Assembly (NCBI GenBank): GCA_043823085.1
Contig: JBDRBE010000003.1
Coordinates: 19,822 to 83,821 of the forward strand
DNA: 64,000 nt
Source: Candidatus Levyibacteriota bacterium
GTDB lineage: Bacteria > Patescibacteriota > Microgenomatia > Levybacterales > UBA12049
Direction of reading: 5' to 3'
The translations under genes were made by a program, and so were the position numbers. Numbering within the stretch: position 1 is the stretch's first letter; the number at the start of each line of letters is the position of its first letter. Positions 14,549 to 64,000 of the stretch are shown here, one piece after another. The notes under the pieces were generated by a model. That model was not told the origin of the DNA. It did not search any database and saw only the letters and a list, made by a program, of their open reading frames with translations.

Positions 14549-14599
14549 AGCGTATAGCGTATAGCGTATAGCGTATAGCGTATAGCGTATAGCGTATAG
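14549..14599. repeat. tandem heptamer (GCGTATA)x7 immediately after the nrdJ stop
   Basis: Seen directly: tagcgtatagcgtatagcgtatagcgtatagcgtatagcgtatag. This unit is the reverse complement of the CTATACGC family found elsewhere in the window. Confidence 0.9.
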
Positions 14600-19800: not shown

Positions 19801-19962
19801 ACATCAAATTTTAACGTCCAGCATCAAATCTTTTTTCTACTTCTTTCCAGTTAACCACATTCCAAAAAGCCTCGATGTATTCTGGTCTTCGATTTTGATA
19901 TCCTAAAATTTAGTTATAAAAAACAAATGTAAAAAGGGTAAGAGAATTGTAAGGTTTTTTAT

Positions 19963-23433: not shown

Positions 23434-24294
23434 TTAGAGTTCTAATAAATTTGTATTTTCCTTTGCTCTATTTTGGACGAATTGGAGATAGCGTTCGGTA
23501 GTTGAAAGTCTTTTGTGTCCTAAAACTTTTGATAAAACAACCAAGGATACACCGTGTTTTAAGTGATGAGCAACAAAGGTGTGGCGAAGATCATTGACTT
23601 TGGCGTCTTTTATCTCGGCCAATCTGAAATATCTTTCGACCGCGGTTCTAATATTTCGAATTAAAAACGGCTTGCCGGTTTTGGTAACAAAAACTCTTTC
23701 TTCTTTAACTTTTGGCCTAACATCCAAATATTTTTTGAGAGCTTCTTTGGCTGGTTTGTTTAAAGGCACAATGCGTGCTTCGTGTTTTTCATAGGGCAAA
23801 ATTTTGATGCTGTCTCCTGCAACATCGGAAAGTCTAAGCGCGGCTAATTCTCCAATCCTAATTCCGGTTTGAAGGAGTAGTTCGATAATGGCAAACATTC
23901 TCGCATCGTTTCTGGTAGAGTCTCTTAAAGCTCGGTATTCGGTTGGAGTTAGGATTCTGGGCGGAGCAAGCTCATATCTTGGGTGATTAATCAAAAGCGA
24001 TGGGTCATCGGTAATATACTCGTTAACCTTTAAAAACCTATAAAAAGTGCGGGTCGAGTTTATTTTTCGAGAAATAGTTTTTGGCGTGAAACCTTGCTTT
24101 GACAATTTTGCCAAAAAAGCCTCAAGATATTCCTTTGTAACTTCGTGAACATTAACTTTTGACGCTTCATTTAAAAAAGAAATCAACTGATCAATGTCCT
24201 TGCCATATGCTACAATGGTGGAGGTTGAATGTTTCTTTTCTTTTAAAAAATTCTTAAATTGTTCGTGGGCATCTTTGAGCGCAATCATTTTCAT
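23434..24294 (-). CDS. tyrosine site-specific recombinase (XerC/XerD family)
   Basis: The C-terminal catalytic region has RHTFVAHHLKHGVSLVVLSKVLGHKRLSTTERYLQ (R..H..R..Y). An N-terminal SAM-like core-binding domain is present. Confidence 0.85.
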   Translation of the reverse strand: MKMIALKDAHEQFKNFLKEKKHSTSTIVAYGKDIDQLISFLNEASKVNVHEVTKEYLEAFLAKLSKQGFTPKTISRKINSTRTFYRFLKVNEYITDDPSLLINHPRYELAPPRILTPTEYRALRDSTRNDARMFAIIELLLQTGIRIGELAALRLSDVAGDSIKILPYEKHEARIVPLNKPAKEALKKYLDVRPKVKEERVFVTKTGKPFLIRNIRTAVERYFRLAEIKDAKVNDLRHTFVAHHLKHGVSLVVLSKVLGHKRLSTTERYLQFVQNRAKENTNLLEL

Positions 24295-25399: not shown

Positions 25400-26752
25400 T
25401 TGATGAACAATCAATTCAAAAATAAAAAAATTGCCATTGTCGGGCTTGGAATAGAGGGTTTATCAAGCGCAAAGTTTTTTATTGAAAAGCGAGCAGAAGT
25501 TACAATTCTGGACAAAAAAGAAAAAACCGAATTAAACCTAGACACTCCGTTTGTTTTTGGTAAAAATTATCTGGATAATCTTGACTGTTTCGATGTCATT
25601 GTTAGAAGTCCGGGTGTTAAAGTTGATCTTCCAAATCTTCAAAAAGCAAAAGAAAAAGGAACGGTTATCACTTCTCAAATAAAACTTTTTTTTGATCTTT
25701 GTCCCTGCAAAATCATCGGCGTTACCGGAACAAAAGGAAAAGGAACGACCGCGTCGTTAATTTACGAAATGTTTAAAAAACAAACCAGAAATGCGTATTT
25801 GGGTGGTAATATAGGACTGCCTCCATTGGATTTTTTGGACAAATTAAATTCTCACTCAATTGTAGTTTTGGAACTCTCAAGTTTCCAACTCCAAGACCTT
25901 AAAAAGAGCCCTCATATTGCCGTAATTCTTATGACTTTAAGTGAACATCTTGATTATCATAAAGATGTTGAAGAATATGTCAGCGCAAAAAGAAATATTG
26001 TTAAATTTCAAAAGACTTCTGACTTTGCGATTTTAAATATTGATTATCCGGCAAGCCGCGAATCGGATATCCATACTCAGGGAAAAGTATTTTATATTAG
26101 TCGGGAAGGGGAGGTTGGTGAAGGATGTTTTGTGAAAAAAGGGGAAATAAAATTAAAAATTAAAAATGAGGAATTAAAAATTATTGATACTAAAGAAATT
26201 TTATTACCCGGGGAGCATAATTTTGAAAATGTTTGCGCGGCGGTTATGGCGGTTGCACTTTGTAATGTCTCGAAAGAGAATATCATTAAAGTCCTTAAAA
26301 CCTTTAAGGGCTTGGAGCATCGTTTGGAGCTTGTTGGAGAGGTTGGCGGCGTTAAATATTACGACGATTCGTTTTCGACCACTCCCGAAACTGCCATTGC
26401 CGCAATACTGGCTTTTAAAAATCCGGAGATTTTAATTTTGGGCGGGTCAAGTAAAAATTCAGATTTTAGCGAGTTAGGAAAAGTTATTAGTAATGCAAAA
26501 AATATCAAGGCGATTATTGGAATCGGTCTTGAATGGAAAAGAATTAAGTCAACTATACGCCATACGCTATACGCCATACGCTATATTGAAGGATTAAAGA
26601 ATATGCATTCAATTATTCAAAAAGCTTCAGAAATAGCGGAGGTGGGGGATATTGTTCTTCTGTCGCCGGCATGTGCCAGTTTTGATATGTTTAAGAACTA
26701 CAAGGACAGGGGAAGGCAGTTTAGAGAAGAAGTGGAGAACCTCAAGAAATAA
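25400..26752 (+). CDS. murD: UDP-N-acetylmuramoylalanine--D-glutamate ligase
   Basis: Rossmann N-terminus KIAIVGLGIEG and the Mur ligase P-loop IGVTGTKGKGTTASLIYEM. There is an in-frame CTATACGC-family repeat at 26548-26590. Confidence 0.9.
   Translation: MMNNQFKNKKIAIVGLGIEGLSSAKFFIEKRAEVTILDKKEKTELNLDTPFVFGKNYLDNLDCFDVIVRSPGVKVDLPNLQKAKEKGTVITSQIKLFFDLCPCKIIGVTGTKGKGTTASLIYEMFKKQTRNAYLGGNIGLPPLDFLDKLNSHSIVVLELSSFQLQDLKKSPHIAVILMTLSEHLDYHKDVEEYVSAKRNIVKFQKTSDFAILNIDYPASRESDIHTQGKVFYISREGEVGEGCFVKKGEIKLKIKNEELKIIDTKEILLPGEHNFENVCAAVMAVALCNVSKENIIKVLKTFKGLEHRLELVGEVGGVKYYDDSFSTTPETAIAAILAFKNPEILILGGSSKNSDFSELGKVISNAKNIKAIIGIGLEWKRIKSTIRHTLYAIRYIEGLKNMHSIIQKASEIAEVGDIVLLSPACASFDMFKNYKDRGRQFREEVENLKK
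26548..26590. repeat. CTATACGC/CCATACGC repeat inserted in-frame in murD
   Basis: aagtcaactatacgccatacgctatacgccatacgctatattg, encoding STIRHTLYAIRYI. Confidence 0.75.
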
Positions 26753-28083: not shown

Positions 28084-28206
28084 TCCAAGTTGGCTTTTTA
28101 GTTTTTATTATGATAGAATTATATTTAACATGGACAATTTACTTTTAAATTATTGGCGCTATGAAATATCCTAACTCGGTTGGGAGTTTTGCAGTGTCAT
28201 AGTTCG

Positions 28207-28231
28207 ACTCGCCAACCGGCGAGTTTTTTTT
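28207..28231 (+). terminator. intrinsic terminator after tgt
   Basis: ctcgccaaccggcgag hairpin followed by a T8 run. Confidence 0.55.
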
Positions 28232-28350
28232 GCGCACATTAAGACATTTATTGATAGTGCACAATCCTCCATAAAACGCTCTTTGAGCCGCAGTTTGAAT
28301 AAACTAAGGCGAAAAGAAAGTTTAGGAGGATATGGATAAGGGAGAGAAAT

Positions 28351-36590: not shown

Positions 36591-36744
36591 TAACCCAATA
36601 CTACCAATTTCAAATACTACCAATTAATTTCAAATAGATAAATCTCAAATAAATACAAATAATTTGGAATTTGATATTTGTAATATTGATTTGTTTATTT
36701 GCTTATTGGGTTATTTGTTTATTTTGAAGTGTTATAATACTTCC

Positions 36745-37701
36745 ATGAAACGTTTTGTTCTCATTGATGGCCATGCGATACTTCATCGGGCTTTTCATGC
36801 ATTGCCTCCGCTGACTTCTGCAAAGGGAGAAACGGTAAATGCGGTCTACGGATTTTTTGCCATGCTTCTTAAAATTTTAGAAGACGTAAAGCCGGAATAT
36901 TTAGCTATTTGTTTTGACAGGCCAAAACCAACTTTTCGTCAAGAACTTTACGTTGGTTATCAGGCCCATCGGCCAAAAATGGACAGCGATTTAGTTCCTC
37001 AAATTGTCCTTCTTCATAAAGTTTTGGAAAGGATAAAAATTCCAATTTTTGAGGTGGATGGATATGAGGCAGACGATGTGATCGGCACTTTGGCCGATCG
37101 AATTCAAAAATCAAAAATCAAAAATCAAAAATTGCAAACGATAATTGTTTCAGGAGATAGAGACATGTTGCAACTTGTAAATTCTCATGTTCTGGTGCTT
37201 GCGCCAATTACAGGCATTACAAAAATGATTTTATTTGACCAAGAAAAAGTGGAGGAAAAATACGGACTTAAACCTTCTCAAATTATTGATTACAAGGCGT
37301 TGATAGGAGACCCTTCAGATAATTATCCGGGAGTTTTGGGGGTTGGACCAAAAACCGCGGCAGAACTTCTTTTAAAATATGAAACACTTGAGAATTTATA
37401 TCAAAATTTAGATTCAGTAGAAAATAAAAAACTGGTGGAAAAGCTGGCCAAAGAAGCGGAAGCCGCAGGAATGGCCAAAAAATTAGCTACCATTATCACT
37501 GACGCGCCGATAACGTTGAGTATTGAAAAATGTTTAGTTTCAAAAGTTGACTTAGAAGAAACAAAAAAGGCCTTTGAAGAGCTGGGGTTTAAGAGTTTGT
37601 TAAAAAGACTAGGACAGAATTCTAGTGATTCAGTGGCTAAGGAAGAACAGAAGCCTAAGGAAACACAAAATAAGGACAATGGTCAGTTAGGACTTTTATG
37701 A
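36745..37701 (+). CDS. stand-alone 5'-3' exonuclease / flap endonuclease (Pol I N-terminal-domain family)
   Basis: MKRFVLIDGHAILHRAF ... GYEADDVIGTLA ... H3TH motif GDPSDNYPGVLGVGPKTA. No polymerase domain follows. There is an in-frame (TCAAAAA)x3 at 37105-37132. Confidence 0.85.
   Translation: MKRFVLIDGHAILHRAFHALPPLTSAKGETVNAVYGFFAMLLKILEDVKPEYLAICFDRPKPTFRQELYVGYQAHRPKMDSDLVPQIVLLHKVLERIKIPIFEVDGYEADDVIGTLADRIQKSKIKNQKLQTIIVSGDRDMLQLVNSHVLVLAPITGITKMILFDQEKVEEKYGLKPSQIIDYKALIGDPSDNYPGVLGVGPKTAAELLLKYETLENLYQNLDSVENKKLVEKLAKEAEAAGMAKKLATIITDAPITLSIEKCLVSKVDLEETKKAFEELGFKSLLKRLGQNSSDSVAKEEQKPKETQNKDNGQLGLL
37105..37132. repeat. tandem heptamer (TCAAAAA) in-frame in the exonuclease gene
   Basis: caaaaatcaaaaatcaaaaatcaaaaatt, encoding KSKIKNQK. 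Confidence 0.85.
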
Positions 37702-38713: not shown

Positions 38714-39376
38714 ATGAATTTAAGAGAAAAAGCTATGCATATGGTTTTGGCTGGTGCTATTGTTGGCGCATTGGGAGTGGGGTGTGCGCCGCCCGTGAGA
38801 GAAGGCACGGATGCTAGTCCGTCAAAAACAAAAACAGAGTGTCTTACGGTTACCCCATCAGAAAGATACTCTTGCCTCTATAAACTTCCAGATTTAAACT
38901 TTCCTGTGTGGGATATAGGTTCAGATGGAGCTTATTACGGTTGTCTTGTTAAAAACGGAGAAAAATCATCCATCAGCGCTAAAATTAATGACGATACATT
39001 AATCATAAGACTTGCGCGGTCTTTCACTGATTTTGCACCAGATTTTCCGGAAGATAAAAATTTAGCTTACATTTTTGATCCTAAAGATATGCGTGCTCGG
39101 ACTCTTCCGTTCAATGAAATAAATAAGATAGTTGATAATGACATTTCAAGGTTTTTGCAAGCCAGAAGAAGCAGTCCAATAATTGCTGTAAAAGACGTTT
39201 GGCAAGACAGCGGTTTTGTTTATTTGGGTTTTGATTATCAAAATATGCAGAATCGCGATAGATACTGGACATTAATGATGCGTAATAATATGCTTGAGGG
39301 GAATAACTTTCGAGGTGTTGGAAAGTTGATTTTGCAAGCGATGCGTATTAGACGTGCAAGTTTTGATAAAGCATGA
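38714..39376 (+). CDS. hypothetical lipoprotein
   Basis: Signal peptide with lipobox-like ...GALGVGCAPP. Confidence 0.45.
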   Translation: MNLREKAMHMVLAGAIVGALGVGCAPPVREGTDASPSKTKTECLTVTPSERYSCLYKLPDLNFPVWDIGSDGAYYGCLVKNGEKSSISAKINDDTLIIRLARSFTDFAPDFPEDKNLAYIFDPKDMRARTLPFNEINKIVDNDISRFLQARRSSPIIAVKDVWQDSGFVYLGFDYQNMQNRDRYWTLMMRNNMLEGNNFRGVGKLILQAMRIRRASFDKA

Positions 39377-40641
39377 AAGTTGCGTTGGTGCATGATTATA
39401 TTAAAGAATATGGAGGCGCCGAAAGAGTGCTTGAGGCGTTGCATGAGATTTGGCCGGAGGCGCCCATTTTTACTTCGGTTTATCTGCCTGAATTTTTAGG
39501 ACCGCACAGGGAAAGGTTTAACGGATGGAAAATTAAAACTTCAATTCTTCAAAGTTTACCATTGAAAGCAAAATTAATAAGCCCTTTTCGAATTATCGCG
39601 CCGCTAATCTTTCGGTCATTTGATTTCAGCGATTATGATGTAGTAATTGTTTCTGCAACCGGAGCATATACACCGAACATGATACAACTCAAAACCACAA
39701 CTCAAAGCTCAAAAATAACTGACCATACGCCATGCGCCATACGCCATGCGCCAGTTCATGTTTGCTATTGTCATACGCCGCCAAGATATCTTTATGGATT
39801 TGCTACGGCAAGGGATTGGAAAAAGAATATTATTTTTAGGGTTTTGGGGGAAATTGCCAATGCATTTTTGCGGCAAATTGATTTTAAATCGGCGCAAAAC
39901 GTTGATTATTTTATCGCCAACTCAAAAAACGTGGCGGGAAGAATTAAAAAGTTCTATAAAAGAGATTCGACAGTTATTTATCCCCCCGTAGTTGGCGCTG
40001 AGGTCGGACATACAAATTTTTTTGTTCCGCAGTTGTCTCACGAAGAATCTCAAGGTGTTCATCAGCGCATTGGCGCTCGACAAGATGCGAACAGAAAAAA
40101 TTTGATATCCTCCCCGCGCCAATACTTTTTAGCCGGAGGAAGATTGGCAAGGCCAAAACACATTGATTTGATTGTTCAAGCCTGCGCTGAACTAAACCTT
40201 CCTCTGAAAATTTTTGGGAAGGGATTCGCGGGATACGATCAACAATTAAAAAATCAAAAATCAAAAATCAAAAATATAACTCAAAAGTCAAAAGTTGAAT
40301 TTTTGGGAGAAGTGAGCGACCAGGAGAAGTTGGAGTTGATGAAAAATGCCAAGGCTTACATTTTTGCCTCGGAAGATGAGGATTTTGGTATCACACCGGT
40401 TGAAGCAATGAGTGTTGGTACGCCGGTTGTTGCTTACCGTTCGGGAGGCGTTGTTGAATCGGTTGTTGATGGAAAAACAGGAATATTTTTTGATAAACTA
40501 TCAATAGAGTCTTTGGCGGAGGCAATAAGGCGCTTAAGCAGTTTAGGGGACTTAAGTGAAAATTGCCGCAATCAGGCCAAAAAATTTAGTAAAGAAAGAT
40601 TTAAAAAAGAAATCGTAGAATTTATTAAATCAAAAATTTAA
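39373..40641 (+). CDS. family GT4 glycosyltransferase carrying three in-frame repeat insertions
   Basis: N-terminus VALVHDYIKEYGGAERV and C-terminal EDFGITPVEAMSVGTPVVAYRSGGVVESV (E-x7-E region). Inserts lie at 39685-39755, 39998-40121 and 40248-40276. Confidence 0.8.
   Translation: MKVALVHDYIKEYGGAERVLEALHEIWPEAPIFTSVYLPEFLGPHRERFNGWKIKTSILQSLPLKAKLISPFRIIAPLIFRSFDFSDYDVVIVSATGAYTPNMIQLKTTTQSSKITDHTPCAIRHAPVHVCYCHTPPRYLYGFATARDWKKNIIFRVLGEIANAFLRQIDFKSAQNVDYFIANSKNVAGRIKKFYKRDSTVIYPPVVGAEVGHTNFFVPQLSHEESQGVHQRIGARQDANRKNLISSPRQYFLAGGRLARPKHIDLIVQACAELNLPLKIFGKGFAGYDQQLKNQKSKIKNITQKSKVEFLGEVSDQEKLELMKNAKAYIFASEDEDFGITPVEAMSVGTPVVAYRSGGVVESVVDGKTGIFFDKLSIESLAEAIRRLSSLGDLSENCRNQAKKFSKERFKKEIVEFIKSKI
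39685..39755. repeat. AT-rich plus CCATACGC/CCATGCGC repeat insertion in-frame in the GT4 gene
   Basis: caactcaaaaccacaactcaaagctcaaaaataactgaccatacgccatgcgccatacgccatgcgcc. Confidence 0.7.
39998..40121. repeat. ~125-bp RPE-like element with terminal inverted repeats (family B copy 1), inserted in-frame inside the GT4 CDS
   Basis: aggtcggacatacaaatttttttgttccgcag...gatgcgaacagaaaaaatttgatatcctccccgcgcca. It is about 85% identical to 50285-50409 (intergenic). The termini CAAATTTTTTTGTTCCGCAG and CTGCGAACAGAAAAAATTTG are reverse complements. Confidence 0.8.
40248..40276. repeat. (TCAAAAA)x4 tandem repeat in-frame in the GT4 gene
   Basis: aaaaatcaaaaatcaaaaatcaaaaatat. Confidence 0.85.
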
Positions 40642-41599: not shown

Positions 41600-42307
41600 A
41601 TGCAAGAAAGTAACAATAAGGAAACAGTAATTATTAAACTTGGGGGATCGCTTATTGTCCCAAATGGTGGTCTTGATACCACGTACATCAAGACCTTTTA
41701 TACGTTCGTTCGAAACGTAGTCGCCGAAAAAAGTAGGCGACTTTTTATTTTAGTGGGGGGCGGATTGTTGTCCCGCCATTACCGCGATGCAGGAGCCGAA
41801 GTTACAGGACAAGAATTATCAAAAGAAGATTTGGACTGGCTTGGAATTCATGCAACAAGACTAAATGCTCATCTTTTCCGTACCATATTTCGCGATTTAG
41901 CCCATCCTGTTATCATCCATGACTATGAATATATCCAAAAACCCACAAAGCCGATTGTTATCGCTGCCGGCTGGAAACCGGGCTGGTCAACAGATTACGA
42001 TGCTGTTGTTTTGGCTCAAGACTATAATATCAAAACAATTATTAAAATGAGCAATGTCGACTATGTTTATGATAAAGATCCTAATGTTGATTCCGGCGCA
42101 AAACCTTATAAAAAAATTTCCTGGCAGGTATATCAAGAAATGGTTGGTACTGTTTGGACTCCGGGCGAACATACGCCTTTTGATCCGGTCGCTGCGAAAC
42201 TGGCCAGCGAACTTAGCTTAAAAGTTTTTTATGTTAATGGAAAAAATCTTGAAAATGCCAAAAAAGCCATGGATGGGCAAGAATTCGTAGGAACGGTGAT
42301 AGAGTAG
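41600..42307 (+). CDS. amino-acid-kinase family protein, probably archaeal-type UMP kinase
   Basis: IIKLGGSLIVPNGG ... ILVGGGLLSRHY resembles archaeal PyrH (~230 aa). Confidence 0.55.
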   Translation: MQESNNKETVIIKLGGSLIVPNGGLDTTYIKTFYTFVRNVVAEKSRRLFILVGGGLLSRHYRDAGAEVTGQELSKEDLDWLGIHATRLNAHLFRTIFRDLAHPVIIHDYEYIQKPTKPIVIAAGWKPGWSTDYDAVVLAQDYNIKTIIKMSNVDYVYDKDPNVDSGAKPYKKISWQVYQEMVGTVWTPGEHTPFDPVAAKLASELSLKVFYVNGKNLENAKKAMDGQEFVGTVIE

Positions 42308-42310
42308 CGA

Positions 42311-42454
42311 GAATCTTTGAAGTGGGAAGTGGGATTTTCTTGAATTTGATGTCTTGATGATTCGATTCCTAGATATCAAGGTTTCGAGATTTCAATTCGT
42401 TAGCTGACGAATCAAGATCAAAAGCATCAAAGATATCTCACTTCAAAAATTCCA
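42311..42454. repeat. MITE-like ~140-bp element with terminal inverted repeats, family A copy 1
   Basis: It starts ctttgaagtgggaagtggga and ends gatatctcacttcaaaaattccaatg. Related copies are at 52605-52740 and 59108-59186. It ends exactly at the recF start codon. Confidence 0.7.
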
Positions 42455-43537
42455 ATGTATTTAAAGCATTTATTTCTTCAAAACTTCAGAAACTATTCAA
42501 AATCAGATTTTAACTTTAGTCAAGATACAACTCTAGTCGTTGGCCCTAATACCTCTGGAAAAACAAATTTAATTGAGGCGATTTATTTACTATCAACCGG
42601 AAAAAGTTTTCGCTCGGAAAAAGATTATCAAATGATTAGTTTTGATAAAGATTTGGCGAGGGTGAAAGGAAAAATAGACGATATAGAACTTGAGATTGTT
42701 TTAACAAACGAAGGTCTTAAAAAATATTTAGTCAACGGAGTCAGTAAAAGAAAAGCGGATTTTGCCTCTAATCTGCCTTTGGTTCTTTTTAACCCGGAAG
42801 ATTTAGAAATTATTATTGATTCGCCTTCTTTGCGGCGGAATTTTTTAGACGAAGTTTTAGAACAGGAAGACAGAGATTATCGGTTTGCGATTATTGCTTA
42901 CACCAAGGCTTTACGCCAGCGAAACGCGCTTTTGGAATTGGCAAGAGAAACAGGCCGGCAGGGAAAAGAAAAGCAATTTGAATATTGGGATGATCTTTGT
43001 ATTAAAAACGGCGAGATTGTAACTGCAAAAAGAGAGGAGTTCATTACTTTTTTAAATAATGCAGATAAAGAAATTTTTGATTTCCAAGTGGTTTACGATA
43101 AAAGTATTATTTCTCCCGAGCGGCTTTTGCAATACAAAAATGCGGAAGTTGGGGCAGGTGTAACTTTGGTTGGTCCCCATAGAGATGATTTTTCGGTTCA
43201 CATGTTCAATAACCAGAGGCAAACGACACACGATGTTAAGTTTTTTGGTTCAAGAGGCCAGCAGAGATTAGCGATTTTACAATTAAAACTTTTACAGCTT
43301 GAATATTTGGAAAAGAGAATAGGGCAGCGGTCCACCTTCACTGAAGCTTCGGCGGACAGGCCAATTCTTCTTTTGGATGATATTTTTTCCGAGCTTGACA
43401 GCGAACATATTCAGCTTGTTTTAGAGATGGTTGATAAACAGCAAACCATTATGACCGCAACACACAAAGAATTCTTTGATAAAAAGTTTCTAAGAGGGGT
43501 AAGTGTGATAGAATTAGGATTAAATGGAAAAGTTTGA
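42455..43537 (+). CDS. recF: DNA replication and repair protein RecF
   Basis: Walker A VGPNTSGKTNLIEAIYLLSTGKSFR, plus the signature and Walker B regions near the C-terminus (LLLDDIFSELD). Confidence 0.9.
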   Translation: MYLKHLFLQNFRNYSKSDFNFSQDTTLVVGPNTSGKTNLIEAIYLLSTGKSFRSEKDYQMISFDKDLARVKGKIDDIELEIVLTNEGLKKYLVNGVSKRKADFASNLPLVLFNPEDLEIIIDSPSLRRNFLDEVLEQEDRDYRFAIIAYTKALRQRNALLELARETGRQGKEKQFEYWDDLCIKNGEIVTAKREEFITFLNNADKEIFDFQVVYDKSIISPERLLQYKNAEVGAGVTLVGPHRDDFSVHMFNNQRQTTHDVKFFGSRGQQRLAILQLKLLQLEYLEKRIGQRSTFTEASADRPILLLDDIFSELDSEHIQLVLEMVDKQQTIMTATHKEFFDKKFLRGVSVIELGLNGKV

Positions 43538-44417
43538 CCAAAGCCAGTTAAAGAAACTTTATCGACCTCAAAAGAATTCTCATAAGGGGCAAAATGGGAA
43601 GTTGATGATTATCGGCGGGTCGCATCTTTTTCATGGTGCGTCTTTGTGGGCGCTAAAAGTTGCTTCAAGAATTGTAGACATGGTTTTTTATTCATCAACA
43701 GCGGAAAATAATCAACTCACGCAGGAATTAAAAAGCAAACTTTATGATTTTATGGCAATTTCAAGAGATAAAATTGACGATTATATTAAAGAGGCGGATG
43801 TTGTTCTTTTGGGCTCGGGATTGCCAAGGGAAGAGGGAAGAGAAGAGAGAGAAGAATCGACAAGAGAACTCACGCAAAGATTATTAAGCTCGTATCCCGA
43901 TAAAAAATGGGTGATTGATGCAGGTTCTTTAACCGAGATGGAGCCGGAATGGCTATTACCATTAAAGGGAAACGTGATAGTTACTCCACATAAAGGAGAG
44001 TTTGAAACTCTTTTTAAACTCAAAAGTCAAAAGTCAAATCTCAAAACCACAACTCAAAACTCAAAAATTACGGAAGAAATTGTTCAGCAAATGGCCGGAA
44101 AATATAACTGTGTGATTCTTTTAAAGGGCGCAACAGATATTATTTGTTCGCCCTTCGACTCCGCTCAGGGTGAAATTCGTTGCGTCCGAATTTCAGGTGG
44201 AAATGTAGGGATGACCAAAGGGGGAACAGGAGATGTTCTAGCAGGTTTAGTTGCGGCGCTTTCTTGCAAAAACGATTTGTTTTTAGCGGCATCGGCTGGT
44301 TCATTTATCAACAAAAAAGCCGGAGAAAGTCTTTATGAGAAGGTTGGACCTTATTTTAACGCTTCAGATTTGGCAGACGAAATTCCCGCAGTAATGAATC
44401 ATTTAATCAATAAATAA
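43524..44417 (+). CDS. YjeF C-terminal-domain carbohydrate-kinase-like protein (NAD(P)H-hydrate dehydratase family)
   Basis: GQNGKLMIIGGSHLFHGASLWA ... GGTGDVLAGLVAALS. It carries in-frame repeat insertions at 43810-43870 (GA-rich), 44020-44075 (AT-rich) and 44150-44200 (family D). Confidence 0.7.
   Translation: MEKFDQSQLKKLYRPQKNSHKGQNGKLMIIGGSHLFHGASLWALKVASRIVDMVFYSSTAENNQLTQELKSKLYDFMAISRDKIDDYIKEADVVLLGSGLPREEGREEREESTRELTQRLLSSYPDKKWVIDAGSLTEMEPEWLLPLKGNVIVTPHKGEFETLFKLKSQKSNLKTTTQNSKITEEIVQQMAGKYNCVILLKGATDIICSPFDSAQGEIRCVRISGGNVGMTKGGTGDVLAGLVAALSCKNDLFLAASAGSFINKKAGESLYEKVGPYFNASDLADEIPAVMNHLINK
44150..44200. repeat. family D element (ccttcgactccgctcaggg + hairpin gaaattcg...cgaatttc), in-frame in the YjeF-like gene
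   Basis: The core TTCGACTCCGCTCAGGG is shared with 59866-59925 (inside trxB) and related to family C (GCTCAGGGCAA). Confidence 0.65.
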
Positions 44418-44668: not shown

Positions 44669-44733
44669 TTGGATATTATAACATCAAAAAAAACCTTGTC
44701 AATTCAGGGTTTTTTGTCTTTTTTGGGCTGAGG

Positions 44734-48875: not shown

Positions 48876-50267
48876 ATGCAACTAGTGGCAGATTTACATG
48901 TACATAGTAAATACTCACGCGCGGTATCACCGGACATGGTTTTGCCAATCATGGCAAAATGGGCAGTTAAAAAAGGAATTGATATTTTGGCAACTGCCGA
49001 CTGGACACATCCTCTTTGGTTTAGGGAAATAAAAGCTAACCTAGAAGAATCCAGTATTGGACTCTTCAAGCTCAAATCTTCCTCCTACTCTAAAGCTTCG
49101 GAGGACAAGCAAAACAAAACTCATTTTATTCTCTCCACTGAAATTTCGAGCATTTACTCGCAGGGTGGGCAAGTGCGGAGAGTTCATAATTTAATTTTAT
49201 CGCCGGGCTTTGAAACTTGCGAAAAAATCAATCAGGAATTGGTTAAACGCGGGTGTAATCTTTCCTCCGACGGACGGCCGATTGTTGGAATTTCTTCAAA
49301 AAATCTTTTGGAAATGGTTTTATCAATTGACAAAAACGCCTTATTTATTCCTTGCCATGTTTGGACGCCGTGGTTTTCTTTGTATGGTTCAAAATCAGGC
49401 TTTGATTCTATAGAAGAATGTTTTGGTGAGTATGTAAATAAAATTTATGCCGTTGAGACAGGACTTTCAAGCGACCCCCAAATGAACTGGCGGATAAAAG
49501 AATTGGAAAACCGTTCAATTGTTTCCTCGTCTGATTCCCATTCGCCGGCAAAGATGGGGAGGGAAGCGACCATATTCACAGTTCAAAATTCAAAATTCAA
49601 AAATCAAAATGACAGTTCAAAATTCAAAATTACATATGATGATTTAGTAGCTGCTATAAAAAGAGATCCCGAAGGTAATTTAAAGATTGGTTATACTATT
49701 GAGTTCTATCCGGAGGAGGGGAAATACCATTATACGGGGCATAGAAATTGTAAAGTTGTACAGAGTCCGGAGGAAACAAATAAGAATGGAGAGATTTGTC
49801 CGGTTTGCAAAAAACCCCTGACAGTGGGAGTGATGCACCGTGTTGAACAACTTGCTCAACAACAATCAATAAACAACTATCGACAATCAACAGATAAATT
49901 TGGAGTTACTTGGGTTGAAGATTCCAGAGGTATTCATCCGCCGTTTGTAAAATTGGTGCCTTTAAATGAAATAATTGCCGAGAGTTTAGCATCGACCGTG
50001 TCTAGCGTCAAAGTAAAAAGCGTTTTTGATCAAATGTGTGGTGAATTCGGTTCGGAAATAAAAATTCTTTTGACAACTCCAATTCAAGATTTGGAAAAAG
50101 CCCAAGGGCCAAAAATTGCCGAGGGAGTTGCCAAAGTCAGGAAGAGTGATATTGTGATTGAACCCGGATTTGATGGAGAATATGGGAAGGTAAAGATATG
50201 GGGAGAAAAAAAGTCAGCAGAGAATAGAAATGGGGAGAAAGAAGAGGCGCAGTTGGGATTATTTTAA
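48876..50267 (+). CDS. PHP-domain nuclease, endonuclease Q-like (TIGR00375 family)
   Basis: N-terminal DLHVHSKYSRAVS PHP motif, further His/Asp metal ligands (PCHVWTPWFS, SSDSHSP), an internal CxxC zinc finger (ICPVCKKPLTVGVMHRVEQLA) and C-terminal PGFDGEYGKVKI. The architecture matches archaeal EndoQ. An in-frame AT-rich tandem repeat lies at 49580-49632. Confidence 0.55.
   Translation: MQLVADLHVHSKYSRAVSPDMVLPIMAKWAVKKGIDILATADWTHPLWFREIKANLEESSIGLFKLKSSSYSKASEDKQNKTHFILSTEISSIYSQGGQVRRVHNLILSPGFETCEKINQELVKRGCNLSSDGRPIVGISSKNLLEMVLSIDKNALFIPCHVWTPWFSLYGSKSGFDSIEECFGEYVNKIYAVETGLSSDPQMNWRIKELENRSIVSSSDSHSPAKMGREATIFTVQNSKFKNQNDSSKFKITYDDLVAAIKRDPEGNLKIGYTIEFYPEEGKYHYTGHRNCKVVQSPEETNKNGEICPVCKKPLTVGVMHRVEQLAQQQSINNYRQSTDKFGVTWVEDSRGIHPPFVKLVPLNEIIAESLASTVSSVKVKSVFDQMCGEFGSEIKILLTTPIQDLEKAQGPKIAEGVAKVRKSDIVIEPGFDGEYGKVKIWGEKKSAENRNGEKEEAQLGLF
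49580..49632. repeat. AT-rich tandem repeat (TTCAAAA) in-frame in the EndoQ-like gene
   Basis: cagttcaaaattcaaaattcaaaaatcaaaatgacagttcaaaattcaaaatt. Confidence 0.85.
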
Positions 50268-50284
50268 AAATTGTTTCTTTGGCG

Positions 50285-50409
50285 CTTAGGTCGGACATGC
50301 AAATTTTTTTGTTCCGCAGTTTCTCTCGCGATGGGTCTTAATTTGCTCATCAACGCAGCGTCGCTCGCAAAGATGCGAACAGAAAAAATTTGATATCCTC
50401 CCCGCGCCA
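50285..50409. repeat. ~125-bp RPE-like element, family B copy 2 (intergenic)
   Basis: taggtcggacatgcaaatttttttgttccgcag...gatgcgaacagaaaaaatttgatatcctccccgcgcca. It is homologous to 39998-40121. Confidence 0.8.
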
Positions 50410-50423
50410 CAATAAAAAATTTT

Positions 50424-51984: not shown

Positions 51985-52602
51985 ATGAAATTAATAGTAG
52001 GGCTTGGAAATCCGGGGGAGAAGTATGAGAAAACCCGCCATAATTTGGGTTTTATGGTTTTGGAAAAATTCTTGCAGGATTTTGAATCGGCGAAGATGAC
52101 AGTTTGGAAGAACGAACCAAAATTCAAATGTGAAACAGCACTTATTGAATGGCAGCCAAAAATTGGTCAATTGGAAAAAGTGGTTTTGGCAAAACCAAAA
52201 ACCTATATGAATAATTCCGGACTTGCCATTAAACTTCTCACTTCTTACTTCTCACTTTTCACTTCCGATGTTTGGGTTATTCATGATGATATTGATTTAC
52301 CGCTCGGTTCATTAAAGATTAGATTTGGCGGCTCATCGGCCGGACACAAAGGAGTTCAATCAATTATTGACAATCTTGGAACAGATAAGTTTTGGCGTTT
52401 TAGAATGGGGATAGGAGAACAATATCAAAAATCAAATATCAAAGATCAAAAGATTAGAAATGTCGATGAATATGTTTTGAATACATTCAAAGGACAGGAG
52501 AGGGGAAAAGTTAAGGATTTAATAAAAAAAGGTTCAAAAGCGATTCAAACAGGACTTGAAGACAGTTTAGAAGCGGCAATGAATAGGTTTAACACTAAGT
52601 AA
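51985..52602 (+). CDS. pth: peptidyl-tRNA hydrolase
   Basis: MKLIVGLGNPGEKYEKTRHNLGF and HDDIDLPLGSLKIRFGGSSAGHKG (Pth signatures). It has a short in-frame TCACTTC repeat insertion. Confidence 0.9.
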   Translation: MKLIVGLGNPGEKYEKTRHNLGFMVLEKFLQDFESAKMTVWKNEPKFKCETALIEWQPKIGQLEKVVLAKPKTYMNNSGLAIKLLTSYFSLFTSDVWVIHDDIDLPLGSLKIRFGGSSAGHKGVQSIIDNLGTDKFWRFRMGIGEQYQKSNIKDQKIRNVDEYVLNTFKGQERGKVKDLIKKGSKAIQTGLEDSLEAAMNRFNTK

Positions 52603-52604: not shown

Positions 52605-52740
52605 GGAATTCTTGAAGTGAGAAGTAAGATATCTTTGAATTTGATTTCTTGATATCTTGATATTTTGAATTCTAGATATCAAGACGTCAAAGATTCAAGT
52701 TCAAGAATATCAGAGGTATCTCACATCAAAAAGTTCTAAT
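52605..52740. repeat. MITE-like element, family A copy 2
   Basis: It starts gaattcttgaagtgagaagtaagatatc and ends gaggtatctcacatcaaaaagttctaat. The termini TTGAAGTGAGA...GATATC and GATATCTCAC..TCAA are reverse complements. Confidence 0.7.
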
Positions 52741-52741: not shown

Positions 52742-53029
52742 ATGAATTCAGTTGGACAGATCCTCAAAAAATTCGATCCGATTAAGGATAAGTATATTTC
52801 GCGAGAATTCCAGTCTTTTGGTATTTATTTGGCCGAAGAACTGGGGGATTATAAGCACAGAAGCTTGTATATAAAGCTTGCAAAAACCGTTCACCGCTCA
52901 ATTTTGGAAAAAGCACTTTTTTATGTTTCCGACAGTAACGCACGAAATAAAGTTGCCCTTTTTATGTGGAAGCTGAACGAGCTTCGCAAGCGAGCGAAAG
53001 CTGACACACAAGAGGAGCACAGGCGTTAG
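52742..53029 (+). CDS. small hypothetical protein
   Basis: 95-aa basic ORF. Confidence 0.35.
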   Translation: MNSVGQILKKFDPIKDKYISREFQSFGIYLAEELGDYKHRSLYIKLAKTVHRSILEKALFYVSDSNARNKVALFMWKLNELRKRAKADTQEEHRR

Positions 53030-55776: not shown

Positions 55777-56526
55777 ATGAGATTACAAAATAAAGTTGCA
55801 ATTGTGACAGGAGGGGGAAGCGGTATTGGCCGGGGAATCGCCATACTTTTTGCCAAAGAAGGAGCAAAAGTTGTGGTTTGCGGAAGAAGACCGGAGGCGT
55901 TGGAAGAGACGGTTAATTTGATTAAACAAAATGGGGGAGAAGCAGTTTTAATTGTTTGTGATGTTTCAAACGCAGAGCAAGTCAACGCTTTAGTAAGTCA
56001 AACAGTCCAACAATTTGGCCGTTTGGATATTTTGGTAAATAATGCCGGAGTATATATTGCTCGTGATGCTCTCTCTGCAACAGAAGAGGAGTGGAATACC
56101 ACCATGTCTATTGATCTTAAAGGTGTTTGGCTTTGCTCGAAAGCGGCAATTCCGCAAATGATAAATGGCGGAGGAGGTAAAATTGTAAACATTGCTTCAA
56201 TTGCAGGACTGGTTGGTTTTGCAGGTTCTGCTTTTTATTGTGCGGCAAAAGGAGCGGTTGTTAATTTAACCCGCGAAATGGCTCTGGACTACGCGTTAAA
56301 GCATATTAATGTCAATGCGATTGCGCCGGGAATTATTGATACGGACATGACAAAACCCTTTTTGCAAGACGAGCAAGCAAAGAAAAGTTTTTTGGATCAA
56401 ACGCCAGTTGGCAGAGTTGGAACACCCGAGGACATTGCTTTTGCCGCAGTTTATCTTGCCTCAAACGAGTCTGATTTTGTTACAGGTCATACCTTGGTTG
56501 TCGATGGGGGATGGACAGCAAAATAG
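55777..56526 (+). CDS. SDR family oxidoreductase (FabG-like)
   Basis: TGGGSGIGRG cofactor motif, NNAG, and catalytic YxxxK (YCAAK). Confidence 0.85.
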   Translation: MRLQNKVAIVTGGGSGIGRGIAILFAKEGAKVVVCGRRPEALEETVNLIKQNGGEAVLIVCDVSNAEQVNALVSQTVQQFGRLDILVNNAGVYIARDALSATEEEWNTTMSIDLKGVWLCSKAAIPQMINGGGGKIVNIASIAGLVGFAGSAFYCAAKGAVVNLTREMALDYALKHINVNAIAPGIIDTDMTKPFLQDEQAKKSFLDQTPVGRVGTPEDIAFAAVYLASNESDFVTGHTLVVDGGWTAK

Positions 56527-56623
56527 CCGCCATTGCTCAATTGCTACATTGTTTCATTGCTAGCAATCGAACAATAGAACAATCTAACAATCGCTTCTTT
56601 TCTGGTGTATAATACTACAAATT

Positions 56624-58195
56624 ATGGATAAACCTTTTTCTCTCTTTGCCGATGTTCTTATTCGTGAGTTTGAAAAAGATGAAACCCCAAGCTCGGGTCG
56701 GAAAATTAGCGTTAATCCAATAGTTTCCAAAGTCGCATCAATATATGAAAAACTGCGAAACGCCATGGATTATCGTGATGAGGAAGTAATTCTTCGGGCG
56801 GCAATCGAGCGAATTCTTAAAAGACGCTTTCTTTTTGGGGGAACGGGAAAAAGTATTGCAGAACCCTTGGTTCGTGAACTTGTTTGGGCAAGATATTTTC
56901 CCGATGAAAGTTTGTCGGAATCAATTATCGAAAAAATAGGAAAAAAAATAGATCTATATTCAAAGCTTCACCAAAATATTCTTTTAAAACACCCCAGTTT
57001 TTCGGAAAAAACGATAAATCAATTAATATATCAATTAATGTCTTCAGACCTTGAACACATCTTGGGAAAGCCTCATAAAAAAGAAGTTATGACCAATTTT
57101 ATTTTTAGAATTATGCGCGAGAATATATCAATAATAGATGACAGCGAACAAACAAGAGATGCTCAAGTTTTTATCGCTATTCATAAAAGTTTTGCCAAAG
57201 ACGATTTGGCGCTTCTTTACTATCATTTATTTAATCAATACTTCGGCGAAATTTCAGAAAAAAATCTTGAGGAGACATCTTCGGATTTTTTAAAAGGGTA
57301 TAGGGAAATTAATTATCAATTGAATTATCCGCGAAAAGACAGAATTTATAATTTTGTTAAAGACAAAACAGCTGTCTTTTTTATCTTAGAAGACTTATTA
57401 AACTTGGAAAAGGGAAATGTCCGCGAGCTTTACAAAAGCGAAAAGGACTTTGATAAAATTGTTTTTGAAATTTGTGAAAGTAGATATGAGGGAATTTCTT
57501 CCAAGGTCCGCCGGGCAATTTTTCGAAGCGTTATTTTTATTCTCTTAACAAAGGCTTTTTTTGCTTTGGCCATTGAGGGAACATATGAAAGCGTTTTTTA
57601 TGGACGAATTTTATGGACTTCAACCCTTTTAAATATTGGAGTACCGCCGTTTCTTATGGCAGCTGTCGGTTTTTTAATAAGAGGGCCAAGTCAAAACAAC
57701 TCAAAGCGAATTTTATCTTATATTAAATTACTTTTAACAAGTGATAGCACAAAATTTAAAAATCCTTTGCAAATTAAGAAAAATCCCGACAAAATAAAAC
57801 CGCTTCTCAATTCAATCTTTACTCTTTTATGGCTGGCAACCTTTCTCTTGGCCTTTGGCATTATTATTTTCTTTTTAGGAAAACTTCATTTTAATATTGT
57901 TAGTCTTGGTATATTTGTTTTTTTCTTGGCGATTGTATCCTTTTTGTCTTATCGAATCAATCAGTCTGCCCATATTTATTCAATAGAGGAGAAGAAAAAT
58001 ATTCTGGCTCCGGTTGTTGATTTCCTGCTTATGCCTTTTGTGCGAGTCGGGAGACACTTAACAGAGGGAATTTCGCAGATTAATCTTTTTATTTTTATTT
58101 TGGATTTTATTATCGAAACGCCTTTTAAAGGACTTTTCGGCTTTTTCGAACAGTGGTTTTTGTTTTTACAAGCCAAAAGAGAGGAATTGGAGTAG
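56624..58195 (+). CDS. hypothetical membrane protein (soluble N-terminal ~300 aa, multi-TM C-terminal region)
   Basis: 523-aa ORF, no recognised motif. The last 34 bp are duplicated at 59071-59104. Confidence 0.45.
   Translation: MDKPFSLFADVLIREFEKDETPSSGRKISVNPIVSKVASIYEKLRNAMDYRDEEVILRAAIERILKRRFLFGGTGKSIAEPLVRELVWARYFPDESLSESIIEKIGKKIDLYSKLHQNILLKHPSFSEKTINQLIYQLMSSDLEHILGKPHKKEVMTNFIFRIMRENISIIDDSEQTRDAQVFIAIHKSFAKDDLALLYYHLFNQYFGEISEKNLEETSSDFLKGYREINYQLNYPRKDRIYNFVKDKTAVFFILEDLLNLEKGNVRELYKSEKDFDKIVFEICESRYEGISSKVRRAIFRSVIFILLTKAFFALAIEGTYESVFYGRILWTSTLLNIGVPPFLMAAVGFLIRGPSQNNSKRILSYIKLLLTSDSTKFKNPLQIKKNPDKIKPLLNSIFTLLWLATFLLAFGIIIFFLGKLHFNIVSLGIFVFFLAIVSFLSYRINQSAHIYSIEEKKNILAPVVDFLLMPFVRVGRHLTEGISQINLFIFILDFIIETPFKGLFGFFEQWFLFLQAKREELE
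58161..58194. repeat. 34-bp direct repeat, copy 1 (ttttt[ag]caagccaaaagagaggaattggagta)
   Basis: The identical string recurs at 59071-59104, and the two copies bracket ORF 58196-59062. Confidence 0.8.
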
Positions 58196-59062
58196 ATGAG
58201 GCTAATGGAGATTTTCGTAAGAACTCGCTTTAAACGTGAGCCCGAAAAACTTCCGGAGGACAAGGATGTTGTTATTATAAGACCCCCGGCAGGAATTAAT
58301 CTAGAAGAGATTGAGGAATTAGCTAGTAAATTAAGATCGAGAAATTTTTTGCCCGTTATAGAACCGGAAGATATGGGATTAGGAGGTATCGCAAGTTCAA
58401 GATTCTGGCCGACAGATCACATCAGGGAAGTTTACCCTTGGATTTTTAGATCAAGGCCGTATAGACCGACAGATTGTATTTTTAAAGATTTAGAAAAAAG
58501 AGGAATTGATTTAAGTCGAGTTAATGAACATATTGTTGATGTCGGGATTTTAAGAGGAGGAGATTATGTTTATCTGGAACAAAACAAAGTTTTTACTTAT
58601 GACAAAGGAAGAGTTTTTAAAGGTAATTCCTCATTAAGAGAGGAGGAAGATAAAGTTAGAAAAGTTTTTAAGATGATGGAGAAAGCAGGATGGGAGCTTA
58701 TTCCTCTTGATATTTCTCGAGGGGAAAAAGACAAGTTGGATCTTGATTTTTTGCTCTCTCTTTTTTTAGGAAAAGATGGAAAAACTCACGCGATTGTACC
58801 CGAAGTATTTTTTTCACAGATCCCATCCGAATTTAAGACGCATACGATATTCGATGAGGAAGTATACTCTGGGGCTTGCAATATTGCCGATTTAAGACGA
58901 GGAACCGTTCTTGTAGTTCCTAATGAAAACCAATCGCCTAGTATCAATCGAATAATTAAAAAATACGTTCACCCGTCAATTGATATTATCGAGGCTCCGC
59001 CTAATTTTTTGGAGAGAGATGGCGGACCAAGATGCTCAATCAGCTCTTTTTCAATAAAATAA
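58196..59062 (+). CDS. hypothetical protein flanked by a 34-bp direct repeat
   Basis: 288-aa ORF, no recognised motif. Confidence 0.45.
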   Translation: MRLMEIFVRTRFKREPEKLPEDKDVVIIRPPAGINLEEIEELASKLRSRNFLPVIEPEDMGLGGIASSRFWPTDHIREVYPWIFRSRPYRPTDCIFKDLEKRGIDLSRVNEHIVDVGILRGGDYVYLEQNKVFTYDKGRVFKGNSSLREEEDKVRKVFKMMEKAGWELIPLDISRGEKDKLDLDFLLSLFLGKDGKTHAIVPEVFFSQIPSEFKTHTIFDEEVYSGACNIADLRRGTVLVVPNENQSPSINRIIKKYVHPSIDIIEAPPNFLERDGGPRCSISSFSIK

Positions 59063-59070
59063 TGATTTTT

Positions 59071-59104
59071 TATTTTTGCAAGCCAAAAGAGAGGAATTGG
59101 AGTA
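59071..59104. repeat. 34-bp direct repeat, copy 2
   Basis: tttttgcaagccaaaagagaggaattggagta. Confidence 0.8.
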
Positions 59105-59107
59105 AGG

Positions 59108-59186
59108 TTTAGAATTCTTGACGTCAAGACCTCAAAAATTCAAGATCAAGAATATCAAGAGTGTCCAACTTCAAAAATTCCAAATA
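59108..59186. repeat. degenerate family A MITE-like element, copy 3
   Basis: gaattcttgacgtcaaga...caacttcaaaaattccaaat shares both termini with the copies at 42311 and 52605. Confidence 0.55.
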
Positions 59187-59226
59187 GTCCTTGCTAGGTG
59201 TTTAATCAAATATTATAATAAGTTAT

Positions 59227-59553
59227 ATGGCAGAAGTAATTATTACCGATCAAAATTTCGAATCAGAAGTTATTAAATCTGACATGCCGGTTCTTGTGGA
59301 TTTTTGGGCGCCGTGGTGCGGGCCATGCCGGATTGTCGGTCCGATTATCGAAGAATTGGCAAAAGAATATGAGGGAAAAGTTAAAATCGGAAAATTAAAT
59401 GTTGACGAAAATTCCGATACTGCGACAAAATATGCGGTGATGAGTATTCCGACTCTTCTTATCTTCAAAAAAGGAAGTCCTTTTAAAACCATGGTCGGCG
59501 CTCTGGCAAAAGAAAATATTAAAAAGGAAATCGATTCAGTAATTAGCGTATAG
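59227..59553 (+). CDS. trxA: thioredoxin
   Basis: Active site WAPWCGPCR. Confidence 0.92.
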
Positions 59554-59620
59554 GGTATAGGGGATAGCGTATAGTTTCCGTTTTAACTATATGCTATACG
59601 CCATTTGCTATACGCTGTTT
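59551..59620. repeat. long hairpin built from GCGTATAG/CTATACGC units between trxA and trxB
   Basis: gcgtatagggtataggggatagcgtatag...ctatatgctatacgccatttgctatacgc. The arms are reverse complements. It may act as a terminator or attenuator. Confidence 0.65.
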
Positions 59621-59625
59621 TTATT

Positions 59626-62014: not shown

Positions 62015-64000
<1,986 letters not shown>

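Follow-up and report, generated by a model that had tools for sequence, protein, structure and literature searches.

What are the three similar stretches of DNA that stand between genes in a contig of Candidatus Levyibacteriota, and how did they come to lie there? They occur in 64,000 nt of contig JBDRBE010000003.1 (positions 19,822 to 83,821; assembly GCA_043823085.1), hereafter the window, whose source is a metagenome-assembled genome (MAG) of this lineage. An earlier note on this DNA had described them as intergenic copies of an element of ~140 bp resembling a MITE (a miniature transposable element with inverted repeats), with 15-bp terminal inverted repeats, each ending next to a downstream start codon and perhaps supplying promoter or terminator function. 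We confirm that the three sequences are true copies of one hairpin-forming repeat of ~80-147 bp. It is probable, in our judgement, that they belong to a single family of non-coding, non-autonomous palindromic repeats that are selfish, are tolerated by virtue of their geometry, and act as neither promoter nor terminator.

The first copy, c1 (42311-42454), is full length at 144 nt and fills the spacer between pyrH and recF, starting 3 nt past the pyrH stop codon and ending 2 nt ahead of the recF ATG. Its left terminal inverted repeat, GAATCTTTGAAGTGGGA (42311-42327, plus strand), continues into a two-unit GAAGTGG heptamer (42319-42334), and its right repeat, TCTCACTTCAAAAATTC (42436-42452, plus strand), has a single heptamer unit only; the two termini are complementary at 15 of 17 positions. 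A small palindrome, TTCGTTAGCTGACGAA (42396-42411), is nested within the right arm. Copy c2 (52605-52740), also full length at 136 nt, fills the spacer between pth and a 95-aa open reading frame (ORF) and is the best palindrome of the copies. Its helix starts 2 nt past the pth stop codon and ends 4-5 nt ahead of the next ATG, and its termini, GAATTCTTGAAGTGAGA (52606-52622) and TCTCACATCAAAAAGTTC (52719-52736), both on the plus strand, match at 15 of 17 positions with one gap. Copy c3 (59108-59186) is internally deleted to 79 nt and lies just upstream of the trxA -35 box, ending ~40 nt ahead of the trxA ATG. Both outermost ends survive in it, TTTAGAATTCTTGA on the left (59108-59121) and TCAAAAATTCCAAA on the right (59171-59184), as does most of the right arm; a candidate left terminus within GGAATTGGAGTAAGG (59093-59107) was dropped, as the terminal match is better at 59108-59121.

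Homology among the copies is well supported. Comparison of c1 with c2 by nhmmer gave E values of 2.8e-10 to 8e-13, and that of c2 with c3 gave 6e-8 to 8e-8, with 78% identity over 78 nt by blastn; neither program found further matches to c1-c3 elsewhere in the window. Local alignment scores lie 8.5-19 standard deviations (sd) above dinucleotide-preserving shuffles among the window copies, and up to 30 sd above such shuffles against copies in other contigs. The possibility that the similarity is merely of the low-complexity, AT-rich kind without conserved termini is thereby made very improbable. The three copies are where the earlier note had placed them, and their ends are inverted repeats. 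Other parts of its description need amendment. The size of ~140 bp holds for c1 and c2 and not for c3; the palindromy is not limited to the 15-bp ends but spans the whole element; and nested palindromes do exist, although the two named, GATATCAAGA and TCTTGATATC, occur once each and in c2 only.

The anatomy of the family is best seen when the window copies, which at 79-147 nt contain no ORF and are non-coding, are set beside those from other contigs. An intact element measures ~120-147 bp and is an imperfect palindrome throughout, with 321 of 444 aligned arm positions complementary (~72%; seven full copies). The conserved ends consist of GGAATTCTTGAAGTGRGA(AGTGRGA)TATC and its reverse complement, a motif found only in element copies, and the GAAGTGR heptamer is present there as one or two units, varying independently at each end. 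The ends are the best-conserved part and are kept across eight copies, with indels concentrated in the centre, and the two ends of one copy co-vary, TTCTTGAA/TTCAAGAA in some versus TTTTTGAA/TTCAAAAA in others. In the interior, TTGA is confined to the 5' half and TCAA to the 3' half, so that the arm beside the downstream gene is always the A-rich one, in either orientation of insertion. The spacing of these units is 6, 8 or 9 nt, which corrects an initial view of the element as strictly heptamer-built: the only true 7-mer is the GAAGTGR end motif. GATATC and GAATTC each occur ten times across the eight copies. An insert of nested-palindrome type, GTCAGCTGAC, is found in three copies (c1 and copies C and D of contig L021), and because, with respect to the neighbouring genes, this marker is found now in one arm and now in the other, both insertion orientations occur.

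As RNA, the predicted folding energy is -46.9 kcal/mol for c2 (z -6.4) and -43.1 kcal/mol for c1 (z -3.2), and the fold of c3 is not significant. RNAalifold returned 37 pairs, most of them invariant and five with compensatory changes, including the co-variation of ends within a copy; with seven sequences and mostly invariant pairs, this test of covariation has low power. The Rfam 15 scan gave no family at the gathering or E-value threshold, only generic matches to miRNA-precursor hairpins at 14-25 bits against cutoffs of 48-200. The data fit a palindrome at the DNA level, of the sort expected where a mobile element is recognised by its ends or by its hairpin form, and are also compatible with a role for the RNA.

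Relatives were sought by scanning a 22-nt degenerate end pattern against collections of genome and metagenome contigs, followed by an nhmmer filter. Most matches to the pattern, a right-end consensus, were due to chance, and those in L002, L017, L020 and L021 only were real. The 13-kb contig L021 has four full copies, A-D. L017 duplicates one of these, L020 has a single arm, and L002, from a Patescibacteria MAG, has two partial, single-arm copies; one further copy was found in L059/L060. The neighbours of the L021 copies (mreB, a PEGA protein, a sortase, tRNA-Arg, an M16 peptidase and ndk) are unrelated to the genes that flank the window copies. Copy B sits between convergent gene ends, and copy C occupies the entire spacer before tRNA-Arg, ending 6 nt from the 5' end of the tRNA. 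All copies of this TTGA/TCAA family are intergenic. It is absent from the other Levybacteria contigs compared (L051-L058, L061, L063-L064 and L084-L090), and two end-pattern scans of viral contigs gave 19 loci, none with the element. Between genomes the element is ~65-80% identical, and the proteins of those genomes are ~70% identical. On the contigs compared, the family appears to be specific to a sub-lineage of the Levybacteria, within the Candidate Phyla Radiation (CPR).

The evidence that these sequences arrived by insertion comes from junctions that are filled in one genome and empty in another. Copy c1 separates a gene for a pyrH-like amino-acid kinase (41600-42307, plus strand), whose stop codon lies 3 nt upstream of it, from recF (42455-43537, plus strand), and c2 separates pth, encoding peptidyl-tRNA hydrolase (51985-52602, plus strand), from the conserved 95-aa ORF (52742-53029, plus strand), which is syntenic with an ORF of 88-89 aa after pth in relatives. 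Gene order around both copies is conserved in those relatives. There, pyrH and recF share 4 nt (ATGA) in L051-L053 and a single nucleotide (TAATG) in L054, whereas in the window they are 147 nt apart and all of this spacer is c1; the length and C terminus of PyrH (..EFVGTVIE*) and the N terminus of RecF are the same in relatives with the empty junction. The pth junction measures 5 nt in L057 and 4 nt in L061, compared with 139 nt in the window, where it holds c2, and 134 nt in L059, where it holds a homologous element. Likewise, the M16 peptidase and ndk genes overlap by 16 nt in L086-L088 and are separated in L021 by a 140-nt element, copy D. The closeness of c1 and c2 to start codons therefore reflects the sites of insertion, junctions that in relatives measure 0-5 nt or at which the genes overlap, and elements at these junctions adjoin the upstream stop codon as well. 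This accounts for the part of the earlier note that holds, namely that c1 (2 nt) and c2 (5 nt) end beside start codons; c3 does not, as it lies ~40 nt from the trxA ATG with a promoter-like site of trxA in between. Upstream of trxA, where c3 lies, the relatives compared have a different gene.

Several observations weigh against the reading of these repeats as tolerated, selfish inserts. No target-site duplication was found when the flanks of c1, c2, the L059 copy and L021 copy D were compared with empty sites in relatives (left TAGCGA, TAAAC and AATAG; right CA, TAATT and AAATT). Nor did Pfam searches find a transposase among window ORFs of at least 80 aa (those of trxA, 59227-59553, and 60599-61147 excepted) or among the scanned ORFs of L021; the only recombinase among the scanned window ORFs is a XerC/D-type integrase (23434-24294). 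With neither a duplication nor a cognate transposase, the case for mobility comes from the filled and empty sites alone, and these were compared among relatives that share ~65-85% protein identity. The copy at the pth junction of L059 is closer to L021 copy A than to c2, which occupies the same site, so that a single vertical insertion is no simple explanation. Two of the three window copies lie in junctions of 5 nt or less in relatives, though longer spacers make up most of the intergenic DNA, and this preference may reflect active targeting or a host function instead of mere tolerance. The tRNA-Arg gene of L021, whose whole spacer is copy C, has no predicted promoter. Mismatches between the arms show no strand asymmetry (29 G:T versus 31 A:C), and sense and antisense fold energies are mixed, with no sign of selection on the RNA of the transcribed strand.

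How, then, do the alternatives fare? A portable promoter or terminator, with outward promoters at the element ends as in Correia elements, or with a hairpin that terminates the upstream transcript, would account for the position of many copies: in six of eight full copies the element end lies 2-10 nt from a start codon, or 6 nt from the 5' end of tRNA-Arg where copy C takes up the whole spacer. The end sequence TCAAGAAT or TCAAAAAT matches TATAAT at four of six positions some 7-10 nt ahead of several ATGs, the host uses leaderless-type spacing with a -10 box 6 nt before the ATG in six genes, and Correia elements carry promoters (PMC10969869). However, consensus scans, which the earlier note had proposed, placed no sigma-70-like site on the gene strand and no hairpin followed by a T-run inside c1, c2, c3 or L021 copies A-D. 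The only sigma-70-like matches within copies are two inward-facing 9/12 matches on the minus strand of c2. The elements have no -35 and a -10 of only four matches in six, and in c1 that hexamer is just 4 nt from the ATG, whereas the promoters of the host itself are close to consensus (TTGACA-16-TATAAT and TTGCTA-17-TATAAT). The second of these belongs to trxA (59191-59219, plus strand); it ends 7 nt before the ATG at 59227 and lies outside c3, between it and the gene. In L021 a promoter-like site for mreB (TTGCAA-17-TATAAT) stands beyond copy A as seen from the gene, so that copy A falls in the 5' leader, and the sortase gene probably also has a separate promoter-like site outside the element. 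As to termination, AAAAATTCC or AAGAATTCC comes after the A+T-rich stems, with no T-run in either direction, and canonical terminators are present elsewhere in the window (e.g. 44688-44715). Copy B lies between convergent genes, and c1, c2, the L059 copy and copy D are inside operons that are contiguous in relatives. A promoter or terminator role is, on this evidence, quite unlikely.

The hairpin might instead have been selected by the host at the RNA level, as a co-opted processing or stability signal (an RNase III target or a block to 3'-5' exonucleases, like REP and ERIC sequences) that sets unequal expression upstream and downstream. The long, stable hairpins predicted for c1 and c2 are in keeping with this, as are a few compensatory changes, an element identity of ~65-80% between genomes whose proteins are ~70% identical, and the processing of ERIC and Correia hairpins by RNase E and RNase III (PMC10969869); that the same three junctions hold different palindromic inserts across Levybacteria lineages could mean a recurrent need for a hairpin. 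Yet the wobble-compatible mismatches lack strand asymmetry, the predicted pairs are mostly invariant with weak covariation, the copies occur in both orientations and also outside transcription units, and relatives manage without any spacer at the same junctions; we regard this explanation as unlikely, though not negligible. The lack of strand bias fits a constraint at the DNA level, and the sequence itself is conserved beyond pairing. These features, together with the confinement of TTGA to the left half and TCAA to the right at spacings of 6, 8 or 9 nt and the repeated GATATC and GAATTC, raise the idea of a protein-binding array, in which the TTGA/TCAA units and 6-bp palindromes (GATATC, GAATTC, GACGTC) are iterated sites for a regulator, nucleoid protein or recombinase, or in which the DNA is extruded as a cruciform. 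No candidate binding protein is linked to the copies, however, the flanking genes are functionally unrelated, unit number and spacing differ between copies, and the element is missing at the same sites in relatives, all of which make such an array improbable. Finally, similar spacers could have arisen independently, without mobility, from a process that generates 7-bp tandem repeats, by low-complexity convergence. Period-7 arrays are indeed pervasive (37 in 168 kb of Levybacteria-like DNA compared with none in 253 kb of control loci), and the element ends hold one or two units of the GAAGTGR heptamer. But the similarity is collinear over 120-140 nt and takes in several distinct modules, with scores that exceed those of dinucleotide shuffles by 6-30 sd, and no other repeat-rich spacer of the window matches the element; convergence is very improbable indeed.

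If the copies are selfish inserts tolerated for their geometry, the following mechanism can be proposed. An element would arrive by insertion, either copy-and-paste or cut-and-paste, without target duplication, both where the stop and start codons of co-directional genes overlap or lie very close together and at other intergenic spots. It would then share a transcript with its neighbours, in which it would form one long hairpin. For the four copies at operon junctions, the predicted main helix starts 2-3 nt after the stop codon and ends 2-9 nt before the AUG, such that the hairpin would loop the insert out and keep stop and start codons neighbours. A ribosome at the stop codon would open the lowest part of the stem, thereby exposing the A-rich strand ahead of the AUG, and the translational coupling of the ancestral overlapping arrangement would be preserved, making such junctions permissive. 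Coupling preserved by a hairpin would explain the persistence of palindromic inserts at these sites. Because the window has few Shine-Dalgarno motifs and has -10 boxes 6 nt from ATGs, access to the start site and not Shine-Dalgarno pairing is likely to be limiting. Sibling palindromic families behave alike, one typified by L055 standing at three successive junctions and a second family of the window occurring both in-frame and beside an ATG. A wider picture, which we put forward only tentatively, is that Levybacteria harbour diverse, fast-turnover families of hairpin inserts, along with the generation of 7-bp repeats, and that these prefer the stop|start junctions of operons while also inserting, in-frame, in protein surface loops and at the tips of 23S rRNA helices.

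The gene starts of the host bear on this scheme. A loose Shine-Dalgarno motif precedes just 15 of 57 window genes, and a TATAAT-like hexamer ends exactly 6 nt before the ATG in six window genes and 7 nt before that of trxA (gene starts with such hexamers include 351 (-), 4911, 46965, 48876, 51128, 59227 and 60599), a spacing that suggests leaderless mRNAs. An origin of replication, a reading prompted by recF, was set aside, as no DnaA-box-like sequence is present in the element and neither dnaA nor dnaN is nearby.

Among known systems the element is most like REPINs/BIMEs and ERIC, and we class it among the small palindromic mobile repeats, as a new family. REPINs and BIMEs are doublets of REP sequences that RAYT Y1 transposases mobilise (Bertels and Rainey 2011, PMC3116915; PMC3337134). 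The likeness extends to a non-coding, extragenic unit of ~100-150 bp with two inverted arms forming one long hairpin, to frequent placement within operons or between convergent genes, to the lack of a target-site duplication, to single-arm remnants, and to families that differ between related genomes. REP palindromes, however, are short and carry a GTAG or CGTC tag (PMC3733652), whereas the arms here are arrays of TTGA/TCAA units plus the GAAGTGR heptamer that form no stem-loop of their own, and CGTC, although seen in some Levybacteria copies, has no fixed terminal position. A tblastn search with a RAYT-like protein of L086 as query gave no match in the window or in the element-bearing loci. 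That protein (6804-7424 of L086, a Levybacteria MAG contig, minus strand) is a 206-aa Y1 (HUH) transposase of RAYT-like type (NF047646, E 2.4e-19, 69.7 bits against a cutoff of 80), and its gene is flanked on both sides (6792 and 7455) by the hairpin AAGGACTGTCCTT, which is unrelated to the element, in a REPtron-like arrangement. This putative gene shows that candidate machinery for hairpin-dependent transposition occurs in the phylum, and a Y1/RAYT-like enzyme, or some other enzyme, might be the mover of the inserts described here.

With ERIC (IRU) sequences of Enterobacteriaceae and Vibrionaceae the element shares the form of an imperfect, intergenic palindrome (~127 bp in ERIC), internally deleted variants and conserved ends. 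ERIC sequences are co-transcribed with neighbouring genes and affect the fate of the mRNA (PMC10969869). The Levybacteria element differs in sequence and phylum, in having no duplicated target, in its phased short units, and in fitting precisely between a stop and a start codon whose counterparts overlap in relatives. Correia elements (CREE/NEMIS) of Neisseria are similarly small, with terminal inverted repeats, and often lie immediately upstream of genes, but they have functional sigma-70 promoters and an IHF site, neither of which was found in the Levybacteria element. They also generate a TA target duplication, and no such duplication was found here. The hairpin RNA of Correia elements is cut by RNase III (PMC10969869). 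None of the tested traits that define Correia-type promoter elements, intrinsic terminators or Rfam families was present. Rickettsia palindromic elements (RPEs) are likewise palindromic repeats of 100-150 bp in a reduced genome, and the sibling window family, like them, has an in-frame copy, with hairpin inserts in the 23S rRNA of the window as a further likeness; the TTGA/TCAA family differs in having no copy inside an ORF, and it has no sequence relationship to RPEs.

Heptamer tandem repeats are known from cyanobacteria as STRR sequences. In Beggiatoaceae, TAACTGA heptamers are repeated in tandem upstream of start codons (PMC4679880). Levybacteria resemble both in a lineage excess of 7-bp tandem arrays, many of them right before the starts of genes without a Shine-Dalgarno motif. 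They differ in having many motifs where those systems have one direct-repeat motif, in arrays that also lie inside ORFs, and in an element that is a composite palindrome with dispersed homologous copies. Measured against bacterial MITEs, the element is below ~300 bp and non-coding, has terminal inverted repeats, is dispersed (three copies in 64 kb, four in the 13-kb L021) and has filled and empty sites. The description as MITE-like in the earlier note is apt in these respects, and lacks support as regards a target-site duplication, not seen at the three junctions with an empty site for comparison, and a transposase, not found among the scanned window ORFs. For CPR/Patescibacteria we found no account in the literature of mobile repeats that are small and palindromic, be they MITEs, REPINs or RPEs, and the term "candidate phyla" is absent from a 2024 review of prokaryotic MITEs (PMC10969869).

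The period-7 arrays are a lineage signature. The window contains 18 tandem arrays of period 7, two of period 8 and none of periods 4-6 or 9-12; examples of the first are at 14548-14599, 16831-16862, 37104-37132, 40249-40293, 44016-44066 and 49574-49631. Their motifs are diverse (TAGCGTA, CAAAAnT, GAAGTGA and others), and such arrays are also present in L021, L054, L055 and L057. Eleven window arrays lie in-frame within conserved ORFs and encode K/N/Q/S/I-rich peptides at hypervariable insertion spots, among them those in the genes for the PolI 5'-3' exonuclease (37099-37138), a GT4 glycosyltransferase (39723-39753 and 40241-40280), NAD(P)HX dehydratase (44016-44066) and a murD-like protein (26553-26585), and that in pth (52421-52451). 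Relatives carry other insertions at these spots, such as GKLGRLGKLG, IRNYELGN and NFQFSIFNFQ. The heptamer-encoded segment of Pth was considered as a window-specific insertion and rejected, relatives having the same length and a similar IKNQKLKN peptide. In addition, 15 nt of the left end of c2 (GAAGTGAGAAGTAAG, 52614-52628) recur perfectly inverted within pth, 350 nt upstream (52243-52257, minus strand), in an (ACTTCTC)n array that encodes LLTSYFSLFTS.

Other palindromes are numerous. A second family in the window (39990-40129 and 50277-50410) comprises two copies that are 87% identical, with terminal inverted repeats TGGCGC..GCGCCA. The first is a 135-nt in-frame insertion in a glycosyltransferase ORF (39373-40641) that is missing from the L051 orthologue and resembles an RPE; the second is intergenic and ends beside the ATG at 50424. 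Two hairpin insertions were found in the 23S rRNA gene by comparison with the Rfam bacterial LSU model, one at 62316-62422 (107 nt replacing 5) and one at 62748-62808 (~94 extra nt). Each consists of heptamer arrays in inverted arrangement (GACAGAA/TTCTGTT; TAGCGTA-type), and the second is related to the hairpin after trxA (59538-59624). That hairpin, of which the palindrome at 59554-59604 folds at -20.6 kcal/mol (z -4.4), is one of several intergenic palindromes made of short phased units, others being at 56515-56608, 3652-3719, 36638-36735 and 19734-19810. Palindromes unrelated to the element occupy the pyrH|recF junction in L063 (594-678), L064 (896-980) and L055 (9950-10045), and the M16|ndk junction in L084 (3476-3560) and L089 (6520-6659); L021 and L084 have different palindromes at the latter, though their NDK proteins are 94% identical. 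The L055-type palindrome is present at three successive junctions (8177-8252, 9950-10045 and 11079-11154) and inside L021 (8968-9053), and other junction palindromes also form multi-copy families.

Close to c3, a 38-nt direct repeat (58157-58194 and 59067-59104, 36 of 38 positions identical) flanks a 288-aa ORF without a Pfam match (58196-59062), an arrangement that suggests the insertion or duplication of a ~910-bp segment in the interval from the end of gene 56624-58195 to c3. Elsewhere in the window, an AdoCbl-II riboswitch (15452-15525), whose 37 bits equal the gathering score, has a cobalamin adenosyltransferase gene on one side and an ORF without a Pfam match on the other, and just upstream of this region are genes for a large ribonucleotide reductase (with RNR barrel and TSCPD domains by Pfam) and for NrdR. 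The spacer at 28084-28350 is structured (z -5.1), has no Rfam match, and possibly yields a small transcript that ends in a canonical terminator, CGCCAACCGGCGAGTTTTTTTT. Mechanical ORF calls run upstream through repeat-rich spacers, as at 36664-36744 of the window and 5785-6327 of L021, where alignment of homologues places the true starts at 36745 (MKRFVLIDG) and, for ndk, at 6249 of L021.

The genomes of the CPR are tiny and tightly packed, and the sites at which such elements survive reveal positions that are dispensable. Together with the 7-bp arrays, the elements add length and variability to the spacers between genes, the protein loops and the rRNA of Levybacteria; they will mislead the calling of gene starts, and are usable as markers for strain typing in metagenomes. 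The parts of this account that could go beyond the ordinary are the junction hot spots and the link to heptamer arrays. Placement between stop and start codons provides a testable model of a neutral 140-nt operon insert, through looping-out and the unmasking of the start by the ribosome. Were it true that junction inserts are targeted, or are kept for the sake of coupling, they would represent a new way in which mobile DNA and operon architecture coexist where genomes are ultra-small.

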